37,447 bases of DNA from a virus (Duplodnaviria > Caudoviricetes): the IMG/VR virus record IMGVR_UViG_3300016474_000241, positions 1 to 37,447 of that record. One strand, 5' to 3'. The position numbers were made by a program, and so were the translations under genes. Within the stretch, counting starts at the first letter, position 1; every line of letters starts with the position of its first letter. Shown piece by piece: positions 6,907 to 26,017 of this stretch. The notes beneath the pieces are model-generated. The model was not told the DNA's origin. It saw nothing but the letters and a program-made list of their open reading frames with translations, and did no database searches.

Positions 6907-7410
6907 ATGCTGTCGTTGTTGTCCACCCTCGGAGGCCTGCTGATCAGCGGGCTGCCCAAGCTCCTGGAGTATTTCCAGGCCCGCGCTGACCACAAGCATG
7001 AGCAGGAGCTGGCGCGCATCCAGACCCAGCACGACCTCGAGATGGCCGCCAAGGGCTTTGCCTCGCAGCAACGCATCGAGGAGATCAAGTTCGACCAGCT
7101 GGCGCTGCAGACCGACGCGCAGATGACCACGGCCGCCCTTGATCACGACAAAGCCGTGCTGGCCAAGGCCTCGCGGTGGGTGGCCAACTACGTCGGCACC
7201 GTGCGCCCCACGGTGACCTACATCTTTGTGTTTGAGCTGGTGTCGATCAACGCCTTCCTCTGCTACTACCTCTGGACCCACCCCGGCCTGGTGACCGGGA
7301 TCGAGGACGTGCTGCGGTACTCGGACATCATCTTCAGCACCGACGAGATGGCCATGCTGGGCGGCATCATCGGCTTCTGGTTCGGCAGCCGGGGCTGGAG
7401 CAAGAAGTGA
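6907..7410 (+). CDS. Holin (3-TM type, putative)
   Basis: N-terminal amphipathic helix, VRP.VTY TM segment, C-terminal IIGFWFGSR; directly upstream of the lysozyme. Confidence 0.7.
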   Translation: MLSLLSTLGGLLISGLPKLLEYFQARADHKHEQELARIQTQHDLEMAAKGFASQQRIEEIKFDQLALQTDAQMTTAALDHDKAVLAKASRWVANYVGTVRPTVTYIFVFELVSINAFLCYYLWTHPGLVTGIEDVLRYSDIIFSTDEMAMLGGIIGFWFGSRGWSKK

Positions 7411-7937
7411 AGCTGTCGGATCAGGGCGCGGCCCTGATGCACAGGTTTGAGGGCTGCCGGGACCGCCCCTACCTGTGCCCAGCCCATATGTGGACCATCG
7501 GCTACGGCCACGTCCTGTACCAAGACCAGCTGCGGCTGCCGATGGCCAGGACGCCCGAGACGCGGACAATCCCGATGATCCGCAAAGAGTACCCGCTGCG
7601 GCCCGAGCACTTCCGCATCTGGAGCAAGGAGGAGATTGATGCGCTATTCCAGGCTGATGTCGCTTCTTTTGAGCGCGGTGTTCTACGACTTGCTCCCGGC
7701 CTGGCTGGCCATCAAGGCGCTTTTGACGCTTGCGTCTCTTTCGCGTTTAATGCCGGGCTAGGCAACTTCCAGCGCTCCCAGATCCGCATGAAGGTGAACC
7801 GGGGCGACTGGCAGGGCGCGGCCGATGCGCTCATGCAATGGACCAAGGGCGGTGGCAGGGTGCTGCCCGGCCTGGTGGCCAGGCGCAAGGCAGAGCGCCA
7901 GCTTTTCTTGTCAAGCGCTCAAGAAACTGTGCCATAA
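7407..7937 (+). CDS. Endolysin, GH24 phage lysozyme
   Basis: FEG..PYLCPA..WTIGYGH (E-8x-C-5x-T triad), FDA.VSFAFN.G, W.K.GG..LPGL..RR..E..LF. Confidence 0.92.
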   Translation: MKLSDQGAALMHRFEGCRDRPYLCPAHMWTIGYGHVLYQDQLRLPMARTPETRTIPMIRKEYPLRPEHFRIWSKEEIDALFQADVASFERGVLRLAPGLAGHQGAFDACVSFAFNAGLGNFQRSQIRMKVNRGDWQGAADALMQWTKGGGRVLPGLVARRKAERQLFLSSAQETVP

Positions 7938-8106
7938 ATGTGCCGCGCACCGTGACGATTGCAGTTGCCATTGCAAACCTTGGCCCGTTAATTCGGGCCT
8001 TTTTTGTATCCTTTAGGATTGTGATTCTGGTGAGTTTTTCTCCTAAGCCCTTGTCGCTGTTGAGTTTTTGTAGACGTAGAATCGGATTTGTGCCATTTTT
8101 GTGCCA
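7928..8106. other. attP site: arm-type repeats flanking a tRNA-His anticodon-loop core
   Basis: Tandem TGTGCC(A/G) pairs with 11-bp period at 7928/7939 and 8089/8100; central GGATTGTGATTC (8016-8027) identical to the tRNA-His anticodon region; lies near the 3' end of int. Confidence 0.75.
7982..8005 (+). terminator. Intrinsic terminator after the lysis cassette
   Basis: GGCCCG-TTAATT-CGGGCC followed by T6. Confidence 0.8.
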
Positions 8107-8123
8107 CAAACAAGGTTTTCAGT

Positions 8124-8200
8124 GGTGGCTGTAGCTCAGTTGGTAGAGCCCTGGATTGTGATTCCAGCCGTCGTGGGTTCGAGTCCCATCAGCCACCCCA
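8124..8200 (+). tRNA. tRNA-His (GUG), complete, with G-1 and encoded CCA
   Basis: GGTGGCTG..CAGCCAC-C-CCA acceptor stem with the G-1:C73 His identity element; anticodon arm CTGGA-TTGTGAT-TCCAG; T-loop TTCGAGT; 77 nt. Confidence 0.97.
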
Positions 8201-8204
8201 TTTT

Positions 8205-9161
8205 TCACAGCCCGACCCTCTCCGCAGCCGCGGCCAGGTGCTCGGGCGAGAGGTGGGCGTAACGCTGCACCATCTCATGCGAGTGCCACCCCCCCAGCTC
8301 CTGCAGCACTGATAACGGCGTTCCGGCCATCGCGTGCCAGCTTGCCCAGGTGTGACGCAGGTCGTGAAACCTAAATCCAGGCACTCCAGCGCGCTTGCAG
8401 GCCGCCTCCCAGGTGTTGGCCCACACCCGCGTCATTTCGCCCCATACGCGCCCTGTGCGGGGCTCTGGCAAAGATGCCAGCAGCTCCCTGGCTTGCCTGT
8501 TCAGGGGCACCACAATGCGATGCCCAGCCTTAGCCTCGTCGGCCTCCACAACCGCCACGCCGCGCTCTAGGTCTACCTTCTCCCAGGTCAGGCCAAAAAC
8601 ATTCGATCTTCTCAACCCGGTGAGCAAAGCAAAACGGACTGGCATCCGATACTTTTCCGGGAGACAAGCAATCAAAACTTCAGCTTGTTCGCGTGTCAGA
8701 AATGCGACGCGGCGCTTGGGTTCTGCCTCGGACTTGAGGACGGGTGCGCGGTCCAGCCAGTCCCAGTCGCGCTCGGCAGAGCGCAACATAGCCCGCACCA
8801 GGGCGCGATAACGGTTCCTGGTGCTCCCGGTCACGTCCTGAGGCAACGCCTCCTCGATGTCGTCGCGGGTGATGTCAGCAAGCTGCTTGGCTCCCAGCTT
8901 GGGCAGGAAATAGTTGATCTTGTCCTGATCCTCGCTGATTGACTTCTTGTGGCCGCGCTCTGTGAGCCAGCGCGCACAGGCATCCTTAAAGGTCTTCTTG
9001 GGGCGAGCCTTGAGAACCTTGCCTTGCCACAGCTCGGCCCTGCGAATGTCGTACAGGTTCTGCGCTTGCTTTTTGTCGTTGGTCTTGAGTGATTCCCGGA
9101 TGCGAACGCCATTGATTTGAACGTCCATCCAGTACACGTCGCCGCGAAGTTTGATAGCCAT
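8205..9161 (-). CDS. int: Tyrosine integrase (P22 Int-like)
   Basis: TGLRRSN, K(AG), FHDLRHTWASW, LGGW, MVQRYAHL catalytic motifs; N-terminal arm-binding-type domain; AAGGA RBS. Confidence 0.95.
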   Translation of the reverse strand: MAIKLRGDVYWMDVQINGVRIRESLKTNDKKQAQNLYDIRRAELWQGKVLKARPKKTFKDACARWLTERGHKKSISEDQDKINYFLPKLGAKQLADITRDDIEEALPQDVTGSTRNRYRALVRAMLRSAERDWDWLDRAPVLKSEAEPKRRVAFLTREQAEVLIACLPEKYRMPVRFALLTGLRRSNVFGLTWEKVDLERGVAVVEADEAKAGHRIVVPLNRQARELLASLPEPRTGRVWGEMTRVWANTWEAACKRAGVPGFRFHDLRHTWASWHAMAGTPLSVLQELGGWHSHEMVQRYAHLSPEHLAAAAERVGL

Positions 9162-9185
9162 GTCGTGGGTTCCTTCAGTTGTTAT

Positions 9186-9220
9186 GGTGAGATTCTCGCA
9201 ACTTGCTGCAGTATTGTCAA
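9186..9220 (-). promoter_or_regulatory. int promoter with overlapping 17-bp operator
   Basis: Minus strand TTGACA-17 bp-GAGAAT with extended TG; operator GGTGAGATTCTCGCAAC (9186-9202) covers the -10. Confidence 0.7.
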
Positions 9221-9228
9221 CTACCAGA

Positions 9229-10572
9229 TTAAATTGACACAGCAGCGTCTATCCGGGCTCCAATCCAGCGCACCACAGGTACAGCCCATGAGTTGCCCAG
9301 CGCCTTGTAGCGCGGGCCGTCCGGGCACTCGCTGGCGGGCTTCTTGCGCCAAGGGATGGCGGTGTAGTTGTCTGGGAAGCCTTGCAAGCGCTCGCACTCC
9401 ACGGGTGTGAGGCGGCGCACGGACATCGTGGGCGGTTGCATTGCCATCTGATGTTCAGGAATTCGCCCAGCCCGCAGCGTGCCAGCGGTGTCGTACTGCT
9501 GAACGCCAAATTCGCTGTCTTGAAAGATGCCGATTGGCTGCGCCACCCCTTGAGTGGCGTGTGTGTCCACGGTGTAGCTGGTGCCGTCATCGTTCCAGCC
9601 TTTGCCGTTCTGCGCCTTCTCTCTGGGCGTGACATCCTGCAAGGCGATTGGATGCGCCGCAAACAGACTGCCATTAGTCGCACTGGCGTTGCCGTTCCAC
9701 TTCGTGCCGTAGGCGGCGGTTAGGCAGTCTGCGGTCTGCTGGAAGGCGATGGGCGCTTCATGGTTACAAGTCAATGTTGGGCCACGGTCAAAGCCGATTT
9801 CTGCCCCGCCTTGGCCGTGAGCCATGGTTATGATGGCTTCGCACTCGACTCGCTCGTTGCCTGTGCGACTGAACGGAGGGCCGTTTGTAACGCAGGGGGC
9901 AACTCTTTCCCCCGCTTCTCGGCTCGGCGCAGAATCCCGGCGCACGCCGTCGAACTCAAAAAGAACCGAGGCGGGATCGAAGTCGTTTCGAGCACTTGCG
10001 ACAACGAACACACGGCGGCGTCGTTGGGCCACTCCGAAATATTGGGCGTCGAGGATGCGCCACGCGACTGTTCTCTGGGGACCATACACACAACCAGCGT
10101 TCGGCCATTTGCCCCTTGGCGGTTCCACTGCACCATCTTCACCGGCAAGGCCTGCCAGAAAGCATCCGAAGGCGTTGTCTTTGGTGCTGAGCACTCCGGG
10201 GACGTTTTCCCAGAAGATGATGCTGGGAACAAGTCCAGCGTGAAGGCGTCGTGTGTCGATTGCATTGGCGATCTCGCAGAAAACTAAGGACAGGTTGCCG
10301 CGAGAATCGTCCAGTGACTTCCTCAGGCCGGCTACGGAAAATGCTTGGCACGGTGTGCCACCGCAGAACAGGTCTGGAGCCTCGACCTCACCGCTGGCGA
10401 TGCGGTCTGGCAGTAGTGTCATGTCTCCAAGGTTTGGGACATCAGGGTAGTGGTGCTTGAGCACAGCAGAAGGGAAGGGCTCGATCTCGGAAAGCCACGC
10501 AGCCTTCCAGCCCCAAAGCCCCCACGCGACCGATGCGGCCTCGATGCCAGAGCAGACAGAACCGAACTTCAT
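9229..10572 (-). CDS. DNA cytosine-5 methyltransferase
   Basis: Motifs I (CSGIEA), IV (GGTPCQAFS), VI (ENV), VIII (QRRRRVF), IX (RRLTPVECERLQGFP) and X (YKALGNS). Confidence 0.95.
   Translation of the reverse strand: MKFGSVCSGIEAASVAWGLWGWKAAWLSEIEPFPSAVLKHHYPDVPNLGDMTLLPDRIASGEVEAPDLFCGGTPCQAFSVAGLRKSLDDSRGNLSLVFCEIANAIDTRRLHAGLVPSIIFWENVPGVLSTKDNAFGCFLAGLAGEDGAVEPPRGKWPNAGCVYGPQRTVAWRILDAQYFGVAQRRRRVFVVASARNDFDPASVLFEFDGVRRDSAPSREAGERVAPCVTNGPPFSRTGNERVECEAIITMAHGQGGAEIGFDRGPTLTCNHEAPIAFQQTADCLTAAYGTKWNGNASATNGSLFAAHPIALQDVTPREKAQNGKGWNDDGTSYTVDTHATQGVAQPIGIFQDSEFGVQQYDTAGTLRAGRIPEHQMAMQPPTMSVRRLTPVECERLQGFPDNYTAIPWRKKPASECPDGPRYKALGNSWAVPVVRWIGARIDAAVSI
9828..10265 (-). CDS. Nested alternative-frame ORF, M.EcoHK31I beta-subunit-like
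   Basis: EWPN..VCSLSQVLET..FFLS..GILRRAEKRGKELP resembles, from memory, the overlapping beta polypeptide of M.EcoHK31I-type C5 MTases. Confidence 0.6.
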   Translation of the reverse strand: MQSTHDAFTLDLFPASSSGKTSPECSAPKTTPSDAFWQALPVKMVQWNRQGANGRTLVVCMVPREQSRGASSTPNISEWPNDAAVCSLSQVLETTSIPPRFFLSSTACAGILRRAEKRGKELPPALQTALRSVAQATSESSAKPS

Positions 10573-15838: not shown

Positions 15839-16420
15839 TCAGGATGGCTTGATCCACAGCACAGGTGAAGCCCAAACAATGTTCACGTCAGTGATGGTTT
15901 CATCACTTGGCCACAAAATGATGTTTTGACTTTCTTTCCTGTAGCCCTTCCTGATCATGCCCATCAACTGCTTGCCATCTTTCGTAGCGCAGACGCAGAT
16001 GTTGTCCATGTGGTGCGTTGGGTCGCTCTGAGCGGGGCTCACAAAAAGCAGCCAACCATCTTTGATGCTGGTGTGTGTGCGCACTTGGACTGCATATGTT
16101 CCAACTGGACAATCGCCTGGCCCAATCACAATGTCATGCGTGCCGTGAGGCATCGCGGTGATGTTTCCATACGAATCCATATGAGCTGCAATCGGCACCT
16201 TGCGGACGTCTTCTGTTACGTCAATGCCAGCCTTGCGCATGACCTCAAGCAAAGGAACACCAAGAATCATTGAAATTTGGTGTGCTTCGTGCGGCGTCAT
16301 TTTGCGTCTACCGCGCAACATCAGCGACACGGCCGCCGCGTCGAGTTCCAACATTTTGGCCAATCCTCGTTGAGAAATTTTCTTGTCAGCCAATCTGTCT
16401 TTGAACCACAAAGTATCCAT
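15839..16420 (-). CDS. cI: CI-like repressor (XRE HTH plus degenerate S24-like C-domain)
   Basis: ISQRGLAKMLELDAAAVSLMLRGRR HTH; VPI..GTYAVQV..IKDGWLLFV C-domain; divergent from a small HTH gene. Confidence 0.8.
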   Translation of the reverse strand: MDTLWFKDRLADKKISQRGLAKMLELDAAAVSLMLRGRRKMTPHEAHQISMILGVPLLEVMRKAGIDVTEDVRKVPIAAHMDSYGNITAMPHGTHDIVIGPGDCPVGTYAVQVRTHTSIKDGWLLFVSPAQSDPTHHMDNICVCATKDGKQLMGMIRKGYRKESQNIILWPSDETITDVNIVWASPVLWIKPS

Positions 16421-21342: not shown

Positions 21343-21903
21343 ATGATGGAAACGCAGCAACAAACCGATCTTGGGCAGCAGCTTCAGAGCGCTGTCCTGC
21401 AAGCCGCGATGGACACTGTGGATGCGTCCAGTGGTGATGACGAAAAACGAACGAAAAACGAGAAAAAGCGAGCCGTGAGCCCGCTCACGGGGGCGCCCGT
21501 GCCAGCGGGGCGCCCGAAGAACGTGAAGAACCGGCTGACGAACCTGCGCGAGGCCGTGCTCGAGGCGTTCGACACGGTCGGCGGCCCTGCGTACCTGGTG
21601 CAGCTTGCGCAGGGCACGCAGAGCGATCGGGCCGCGTTCGTGGGCCTCGTCAGCAAGGTGCTGCCCACGCAGGTGAACGCCCAGGTCGGGGGCGGCGTGC
21701 AAATTCAACTGAGCTGGCTTGGATCGCGCCAGATTGGCACAACCGTGGCACAAGAGCCCGAGCAGATTACGCAAGTCGTTGATTTACAAAAGGATTCGGC
21801 TGGGAGGTATCGGATTATTGATCCGACAGGAGCGCCGGAAGGCGGCCAGGCGCCGGCGGGGGCGGCGGGGCAGGACGGCGCAGGAGGCGCTGATGGGGCT
21901 TGA
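21343..21903 (+). CDS. Terminase small subunit (putative)
   Basis: GRPKNVKNR..LREAVLEAF..VGG..YL..AFV.LV.KVLP; lies upstream of terL. Confidence 0.65.
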   Translation: MMETQQQTDLGQQLQSAVLQAAMDTVDASSGDDEKRTKNEKKRAVSPLTGAPVPAGRPKNVKNRLTNLREAVLEAFDTVGGPAYLVQLAQGTQSDRAAFVGLVSKVLPTQVNAQVGGGVQIQLSWLGSRQIGTTVAQEPEQITQVVDLQKDSAGRYRIIDPTGAPEGGQAPAGAAGQDGAGGADGA

Positions 21904-25654: not shown

Positions 25655-26017
25655 ATGAAAAAGGCTGAAGAGTTTGTGAGCCTGGTCCTGCTGGACCGCG
25701 ACACCGCGCACCTCGCGCACTGGAAGACCAAGAGCTACGCCGAGCACAAGGCGCTCAACACCTTCTACGACGAGCTGCTCGAGCTCATCGACGGGTTTGT
25801 CGAGCAGTACCAGGGCTACTACGGCGGCCGCATGGCCATCGAGCGCGCAGACAACGGCAAGAGCGAAGACATCCGCGAGGCCCTCGAGGACCGCGTCGAG
25901 TGGATCGAGATGTACCGATACCAGATCTGCGATGAGGATGAGACATCGCTGCAGAACACGATCGACGAGATCATCAGGCTTTACCAGAGCACCCAGTACA
26001 TGCTGACGTTGGAGTGA
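25655..26017 (+). CDS. DUF5856 / Dps-ferritin-like four-helix protein
   Basis: HLAHW.TKSYAEHKAL..FYD.L..L.D.FVE.YQG. Confidence 0.75.
   Translation: MKKAEEFVSLVLLDRDTAHLAHWKTKSYAEHKALNTFYDELLELIDGFVEQYQGYYGGRMAIERADNGKSEDIREALEDRVEWIEMYRYQICDEDETSLQNTIDEIIRLYQSTQYMLTLE

Follow-up and report, generated by a model that had tools for sequence, protein, structure and literature searches.

Tyrosine integrases of the loop class usually exchange strands across an overlap of 7 bp, the anticodon loop of a tRNA gene, and Williams is said to have set out in 2002 a class of integrases that cross over there. In the canonical arrangement of P22-like and APSE-like phages, the phage attachment site (attP) carries the 3' half of the target tRNA, which restores the gene on integration. 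A different strategy, tRNA-dependent lysogeny, has been proven by experiment in the actinobacteriophages Fionnbharth (K4), Cain (K6), those of Cluster L, Gaia, BrutonGaster, OneUp and Mollymur, according to the available text of Guerrero-Bustamante and Hatfull (2024, PMC10865867). These phages combine a tyrosine integrase, a short core of 8-17 bp within a tRNA gene and arm pairs with a cognate phage tRNA that differs from that of the host, and have close relatives that rebuild the host gene; the same text cites the Lactobacillus johnsonii prophage Lj965, from a Firmicute, for which a cognate tRNA and a failure to rebuild a tRNA have been reported. Two prophages, of Sinorhizobium meliloti AK21 and RU11/001, which resemble the podovirus Lo5R7ANS, are reported to break tRNA-Leu(UAG) and carry a replacement (available parts of PMC11476347 and PMC12429752). 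Here we describe a likely attP at 7928-8106 whose core is the anticodon loop of tRNA-His, together with the complete tRNA-His and the integrase gene that follow it, in a 37,447-nucleotide virus sequence (IMG/VR record IMGVR_UViG_3300016474_000241, Caudoviricetes), the whole of which is called the window.

The strategy itself is already known; what is new is the isotype, tRNA-His, the promoter capture that would occur at attL, and the series of relatives with the 3' half only, both forms or the full tRNA only. Judged by its sequence, the module has the four features of tRNA-dependent lysogeny, namely an integrase, a short core, flanking predicted arms and a same-isotype tRNA, and the pairing of an attP with a replacement tRNA is real and conserved. 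That this is a genuine attP for tRNA-His is nearly certain, and it is very probable that integration there breaks the host gene and replaces it. A lysogeny that depends on the phage tRNA, driven by a host promoter, is the likely explanation of the whole, and the drive from the host promoter, taken by itself, is reasonably likely.

In comparison with the actinobacteriophages, the presumed host belongs to another phylum and the isotype is His rather than Lys, Ile2 or Leu. The Fionnbharth tRNA lies elsewhere in its genome and has its own promoter, whereas that of the window lies 105 bp from the core and has none. All host-tRNA rebuilders in Table 2 of the actinobacteriophage paper lack a cognate phage tRNA, whereas five sites described here have both; and that system is proven by experiment, whereas the present one is known from sequence alone (comparisons limited to the available text of PMC10865867). 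The Lo5R7ANS group is alike in being proteobacterial and short-tailed, with prophages reported to break the tRNA centrally and carry one of the same isotype (PMC11476347, in the part available). An earlier note on the window, made from its letters only, had known of no such layout in a proteobacterial podovirus, and in its broad form this claim fails on that group. Lo5R7ANS differs in being a T7-like member of the Autographiviridae from Alphaproteobacteria, with tRNA-Leu(UAG) as its target. Its genome (Mesorhizobium phage vB_MloP_Lo5R7ANS, NC_025431) has an unannotated candidate attP at about 8520-8840, with arm-like GTGACAA repeats, a full tRNA-Leu at 8569-8651, a short anticodon-loop copy at about 8672 and then further arm-like repeats. 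Because the tRNA there sits on the left-arm side of the core, inside the arms, integration would leave it at attR, unable to use the host tRNA promoter, and the promoter-capture layout of the window thus still differs. No paper on host-promoter use by such a replacement tRNA was found in a literature search covering few subscription papers, and blastn of the region against annotated phages matched 535 records in the tRNA part only, none covering 80%. With the canonical P22-like and APSE-like sites the window has in common the integrase superfamily, the predicted 7-bp loop overlap and the architecture of arms and integration host factor (IHF) site. Its sisters L009, L010, L017 and L320 use canonical 3'-half integration at the same gene, whereas the window lacks the 3' half and its attL could not rebuild the gene.

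The elements follow one another in the order endolysin, left arms, terminator, core, right arms and tRNA-His, with the integrase gene (int) then on the opposite strand:

7407-7937, plus strand: endolysin gene (open reading frame list; PHROG 7, E 3.8e-46), its stop codon inside the left arm pair
7928-7945, plus strand: left pair of predicted integrase (Int) arm-type sites, TGTGCCA and TGTGCCG, 11-bp period
7951-7957, plus strand: likely third left arm-type repeat, CGTGACG, read from the sequence; in relatives, CGTGACA or TGTGCCA stands about 24 bp beyond the first arm
7982-8005, plus strand: intrinsic-terminator-like hairpin (7982-7999, with a T-run to 8005), which would stop lysis-operon transcription before the core
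8017-8031, plus strand: longest block common to host-type tRNA-His, 15 bp with L201 (CCAGA/TCTGG stem), including the predicted right core-type site TCTGG
8019-8025, plus strand: attP core, TTGTGAT, equal to the anticodon loop of tRNA-His (positions 32-38) and predicted to be the region of strand exchange (7 bp)
8044-8056, minus strand: position of the IHF-like site, offset +25, degenerate in the window (3 mismatches, by eye)
8089-8106, plus strand: right pair of predicted Int arm-type sites, TGTGCCA twice
8124-8200, plus strand: complete tRNA-His(GUG) with G-1 at 8124, C73 and encoded CCA, stem CTGGA/TCCAG, no -10 box upstream (ARAGORN 8125-8200)
8205-9161, minus strand: tyrosine integrase gene, 318 aa, convergent on the tRNA (PHROG 1, E 9e-68; PF00589)

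Each element that the earlier note had placed here, including the terminator left of the core and the intact tRNA-His to its right, was found at its position. The sequence GGATTGTGATTC occurs at 8016-8027 and again at 8153-8164 in the tRNA, with no further match in the window even when one mismatch is allowed (shuffle mean 0.16). The 12-bp match on which the note had based the core is thus real, but among relatives only the loop TTGTGAT plus W-C-Y-G-G is conserved; likewise the homology exists, but its relevant partner is the host gene (15 bp, 8017-8031, or 13 bp, 8015-8027) and not the phage's own tRNA. In 32 short-core sites the base at position -1 is A, C or T and that at +7 is T or A, followed by C-Y-G-G, and because the bases beside the loop vary in this way the homology is confined to the 7-bp anticodon loop. 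Although TTGTGAT was part of the filter by which sites were gathered, it is also present in all 16 of the integrase-selected loci with the region in view. Identity between attP and four host-type tRNA-His genes is 12-15 bp, ending at 8031 at most, and is too short for gene repair; the 13-bp block is shared with a gene of the CAGGA/TCCTG type (L198) and 12 bp with L083 and L204. No tRNA 3' half of the canonical, tRNA-restoring kind lies between the arm pairs of the window. Single contigs from the independent runs X3, X8 and X13 span the core between its arms, so that it is not an artefact of assembly.

The predicted arm-type sites flank the core as paired repeats at fixed distances. The tandem pairs that the note had taken for Int arm sites are borne out in their paired form, TGTGCCR-N4-TGTGCCR, which occurs three times in the window and in none of 100 shuffles; taken singly, the heptamer shows no enrichment (19 against an expectation of 21.5), which leaves the paired form alone as informative. 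The left arms start 90-93 bp before the loop in 52 distinct sites, gathered with a distance filter of 88-95 bp. Measured from the start of the loop, the right arms begin at 69-71 bp in short-core sites, as against 91-92 bp in close relatives with the 3' half retained. The gap of about two helical turns is what would be expected if the geometry of the intasome was kept when the 3' half was lost. The IHF-like site matches WATCAANNNNTTR, which we take to be the IHF consensus, with 0-1 mismatch in 28 of the 32 short-core sites; the window, L001, L002 and L264 do not match it. A terminator-like hairpin is found at the matching position in 12 of the 52 sites and is missing there from most other short-core lineages. 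As the canonical L009, L017 and L320 also have it, the terminator is older than the short-core layout, and it is neither universal nor special to it.

A third arm-like pair lies far from attP, at 21735-21752 on the minus strand, inside an open reading frame (21343-21903) just upstream of the terminase large subunit gene. A perfect IHF-like site precedes it by 32 bp (region 21735-21784), and three of five related complete phage records (G796, G797 and G800) have the pair at the homologous place with a similar IHF-like site. It may be an element of the packaging site or a distant Int-binding site, and its presence means that the arm motif may not be bound by Int alone.

The complete tRNA might instead itself be the att core, through a long duplication, with 8016-8027 a leftover. 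It shares 70 or 71 of its 77 bases with host genes and abuts int. However, it lies outside both arm pairs, with no arms beyond it, and in canonical sisters the 3' half begins at the short-core position, 90-92 bp from the left arms, which makes this reading extremely unlikely and agrees with the earlier proposal that the short core is the attP core.

Comparison among viral relatives distinguishes three layouts: the core with a tRNA-His 3' half and no full tRNA (layout A), the 3' half with a full tRNA beyond the right arms (layout B), and the short core with a full tRNA (layout C, as in the window). An integrase query gave 20 viral loci, four of which were left out (three at a contig edge and one only 26% identical); the other 16 show the att region, all with the tRNA-His loop between arm pairs, and comprise 8 of layout C, 5 of B and 3 of A. 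When these were pooled with a further scan and two motif-built scans (44 and 50 loci), a script classed 52 distinct sites as 32 C (window included), 11 A, 5 B and 4 unclassed; of the last, L304 is C and three are cut off by contig ends, so that C is found at 32 distinct sites besides the window. The 44-locus scan required a tRNA and so favours C and B. In 42 of its loci the left arms are retained, the other two being cut off, which means that these 42 are unintegrated. The 50-locus scan required the left arms and core but not a tRNA. It gave 28 short cores with the right side in view, and a full tRNA-His accompanies all 28; the other 22 loci are 4 B, 14 A, 3 cut off and 1 unrelated.

This result bears on the possibility that integration occurs at the loop with the tRNA dispensable, either in a host with two tRNA-His genes or through use of the 7-bp core at non-tRNA sites. 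A 7-bp overlap could suit other sites in a host that is presumed only, and, in the probable host family, that of the Hydrogenophaga metagenome-assembled genome (MAG) G001, 7 of the 143 genomes with a match (151 searched) have two tRNA-His matches. The other 136 have one, however, several of the doubles lie at contig ends and resemble assembly repeats, and a short core without a tRNA, which would be expected if the tRNA were dispensable, occurs in none of the 28. A dispensable tRNA is thus very unlikely.

In a careful tree of 26 rows, the integrases aimed at tRNA-His group together as a clade (100/98), apart from six sister integrases with a tRNA-Cys 3' half in their attP. Within it the short-core layout needs 2-3 changes and forms a single group in 0 of 200 bootstrap trees, although the starred branches alone are compatible with one origin. 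Of the 11 A sites, eight have integrases from a distant group (about 39% identity, one of them covered only in part). The integrases of the other three, L009, L017 and L320, are 76-79% identical to that of the window, and sister integrases at 75-79% identity go with an ordinary 3' half, either alone or together with a full tRNA. Canonical repair is probably ancestral, and because rows with the 3' half only or both forms intermix with short-core lineages, layouts have probably been switched or swapped more than once. Relative to L009, layout B has an additional segment of about 95 bp that carries the tRNA, placed after the right arms and before the int stop codon, with an imperfect 6-7-bp repeat at its ends; B may be an intermediate or a recombinant.

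Residues R184, K211, H266, R269, W292 and Y301 of the window integrase are invariant in 13 close homologues, and their catalytic roles are presumably those of tyrosine recombinases in general. The best annotated matches, to P22-like and APSE-like integrases, are 39-41% identical. A weak promoter candidate lies upstream of int, one being found against 0.8 by chance:

9192-9220, minus strand: sigma-70-like promoter, TTGACA-17-GAGAAT

Other targets appear among more distant integrases with the same arm motif: tRNA-Cys at 64-72% identity (L115-L118, L121-L124) and a tRNA-Ser(CGA)-like gene at 55-64% (L125, L135), each with a canonical 3' half. In L119, L128 and probably L127 (58-61%), an apparent tRNA-Ser(GGA) 5' half, identified by eye, lies downstream of int and ends at the anticodon loop; the arm repeats of the L119/L128 type are inverted, and an attP of this kind would restore the gene from the opposite side.

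The phage tRNA-His, 4 bases from the int stop codon, is intact by its ARAGORN call, its G-1, C73 and CCA, and its compensatory changes. In 11 distinct phage copies, 242 of 242 cells are paired, and 4 pairs, which lie in the acceptor and T stems, show compensatory changes; these changes amount to 12 cells against a shuffle mean of 2.9, in a control that ignores relatedness and in which 47 of 500 shuffles reach the count of 4 pairs. The anticodon stem is CTGGA/TCCAG in all 38 phage copies, and TCCAG is found at no attP core. Host 5' stems, typed by hand count in 150 matches from the G001 family, are CAGGA in 94, CCAGA in 52 and CTGGA in 1 (one match is from the unpublished G150, on which no conclusion rests), and the 3' halves of layouts A and B match the CAGGA and CCAGA host types. 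The CTGGA/TCCAG stem is also present in 30 of 201 genomes of the order (one unpublished, G430), some with copies 1 base from a phage copy, so that a single acquisition from another lineage could explain it without selection for integrase immunity; a CTGGA-type host for the window phage is possible. In some short-core phages (L101, L104, L105 and L108), about 260-430 bp of inserted DNA lies between the tRNA and int, and the distance from core to tRNA stays at 101-112 bp.

Of 30 host tRNA-His genes, 29 have a -10 box (at least 5 of 6 matches) at 4-22 nt upstream, as against none of the 38 phage copies. This asymmetry fits the capture of a host promoter and accords with the earlier suggestion that integration places the phage gene behind the host tRNA promoter. 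No terminator-like hairpin lies between core and tRNA in any of 38 leaders. TAGAAT at 8077-8082 was rejected as a phage -10 box, having no -35 at 16-18 nt and not being conserved in L002. The one host tRNA-His with no -10 box nearby (in G006, region L217 1483-3022) is intact, with a T-stem change; it is followed by IHF-like sites and a large unrelated integrase-like open reading frame.

The host gene could also be broken and replaced while a phage promoter or read-through, rather than the host promoter, drives the phage tRNA, as in Fionnbharth, whose tRNA has its own promoter (PMC10865867, available text). In all five sites of layout B a hexamer with 4 of 6 matches lies upstream of the tRNA, and the promoter scans cover sigma-70-like sites only. 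In the short-core layout, however, none of 33 sites has even a 4-of-6 -10 box beside the tRNA and only one leader of 33 has a weak sigma-70-like promoter, and after integration the tRNA would be preceded by no more than about 100 bp of attP before host sequence begins. A phage-driven tRNA is accordingly unlikely.

The host-driven scheme, with the crossover position, host, junctions, processing and lethality as we infer them, would run as follows. Strand exchange by the integrase would take place inside the 7-bp anticodon loop of the host tRNA-His gene, usually the only one, and, with no 3' half at attP, integration would leave that gene in two halves, to be replaced by the complete phage tRNA-His. 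The predicted attL comprises the host promoter, the 5' half, 8019-8200 and int, whilst attR would comprise the end of the lysis operon, the left arms, the terminator, the loop and the host 3' half. The host tRNA promoter would thus stand upstream of the phage tRNA at a distance of about 140 bp, with no stop in between, and RNase P would trim the long leader; the folding of 8019-8200 does not exceed that of shuffles (z -1.3), although the cloverleaf does form. An integrant without the phage tRNA would be lethal. At attR the terminator would shield the host from lysis-operon transcription. With a gap of only 4 bases between the tRNA and the int stop codon, one may speculate that read-through past the tRNA gives an antisense RNA to int.

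Several observations weigh against this scheme, beyond the limits given above for the promoter scans and the compensatory changes. The prophage search for which the earlier note had called found no integrated copy and no attL or attR junction in viral contigs, metagenome contigs, bacterial genomes or read runs. The attL pattern had no match in viral contigs, one false match in metagenome contigs and four in 401 genomes of the order, all intact tRNAs; the metagenome match (L228) was rejected as a normal, uninterrupted tRNA-His of a Pro-Arg-His cluster beside a 7-mer that resembles an arm by chance. A scan of genome contigs with generic patterns, covering 34 of 64 parts, gave no integrase above 51% identity, and protein searches of overlapping genome samples (401 of the family, 401 of the order, 1 + 14 of the genus and three sets of 136 relatives) gave none above 49%. 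Among the matches listed, no homologue lies on a contig above 41.6 kb, and among the loose ends listed for seven runs (contigs only), none at the core carries a host tRNA half. Breaks in run X2, considered as junctions, fit strain variants. The seven genomes with two tRNA-His matches, considered as carriers of split genes, show 12 stretches and L221 (the other copy in G105) intact, one cut by a contig end and none split. The host of the window phage is only presumed to be a Comamonadaceae-type member of the Burkholderiales, and the five sites with both a 3' half and a full tRNA indicate that the tRNA can persist where rescue needs none. The canonical sisters have likewise not been seen integrated, so that missing lysogens do not single out the short-core form. 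In favour of the scheme, duplicates of the tRNA-His 3' half in Burkholderiales genomes (L181, L182, L184, L189) start at the loop or a few bases from it.

The lack of a lysogen, together with the redundant tRNA kept in layout B, would suit a tRNA that serves lytic growth, by translation supply or defence against nucleases, with integration rare or never occurring and the core loosely kept. Yet the integrase is intact, a repressor-like gene is present, and the core, arm spacing and IHF-like site are fixed while adjoining bases diverge. In the window the terminator sits between the late operon and the promoterless tRNA, and the anticodon loop is that of the host, so that nucleases reading the loop would likely cut both. 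A purely lytic role is therefore improbable.

The pieces of the host-driven scheme may be joined in a broader, tentative reading, in which the replacement tRNA is a gene activated by integration, the stem confers immunity to the integrase, and the coexisting layouts are an evolutionary record. In the free genome the tRNA would be isolated from phage transcription, and it would be turned on only at attL, behind the host tRNA-His promoter, with excision and integration toggling which tRNA-His the cell uses. The CTGGA/TCCAG stem would protect the tRNA from the phage's own integrase and from superinfecting kin. In evolution, the tRNA would have been gained first and two helical turns of the 3' half then lost.

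The window is a single contig (G+C 61.6%) and, because its ends overlap by 22 nt, is a closed circle. Among 43 open reading frames scanned against PHROG, matches were found for terminase, portal, capsid, tail, endolysin, repressor-like and integrase families. None was found for tape-measure or sheath, from which the virion is taken to be short-tailed. The capsid is 71% identical to that of Stenotrophomonas phage BUCT555 and 64% to that of Myxococcus phage Mx8. The repressor-like gene supports a temperate life style:

15839-16420, minus strand: repressor-like gene (PHROG 4, E 6.3e-09)

A Dps-like gene (starvation-inducible PHROG family) lies at 25655-26017 between the portal and capsid genes, and the DNA methyltransferase gene at 9229-10572 contains long alternate-frame open reading frames on the minus strand (9828-10265, 145 aa, and 9249-9683, 144 aa). 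At least half of the words of 7400-9200 are present in 15 freshwater, aquatic or estuary metagenome runs from 7 studies, with no RNA run among the matches listed; run X1, a possible source of the window, is not counted as independent evidence. The homologue cluster has one member labelled as a Burkholderiaceae MAG and a partial one labelled as an Alphaproteobacteria MAG, and because both are on short contigs the host stays a presumption.

With this locus, tRNA-dependent lysogeny would reach a new isotype and a phage group that is widespread in fresh water and whose host is likely betaproteobacterial. Its relatives form a natural series, with the 3' half only, both forms or the full tRNA only, among integrases 75-95% alike; the form with both is absent from the table of the founding paper, and the order of the steps is a question which that paper, in its available text, leaves open (PMC10865867). 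Such prophages would probably escape att-finding tools that rely on long duplications of a tRNA. Should the tRNA be driven by the host promoter, 1.3 kb holds the complete system, which would then amount to a self-selecting integration module.

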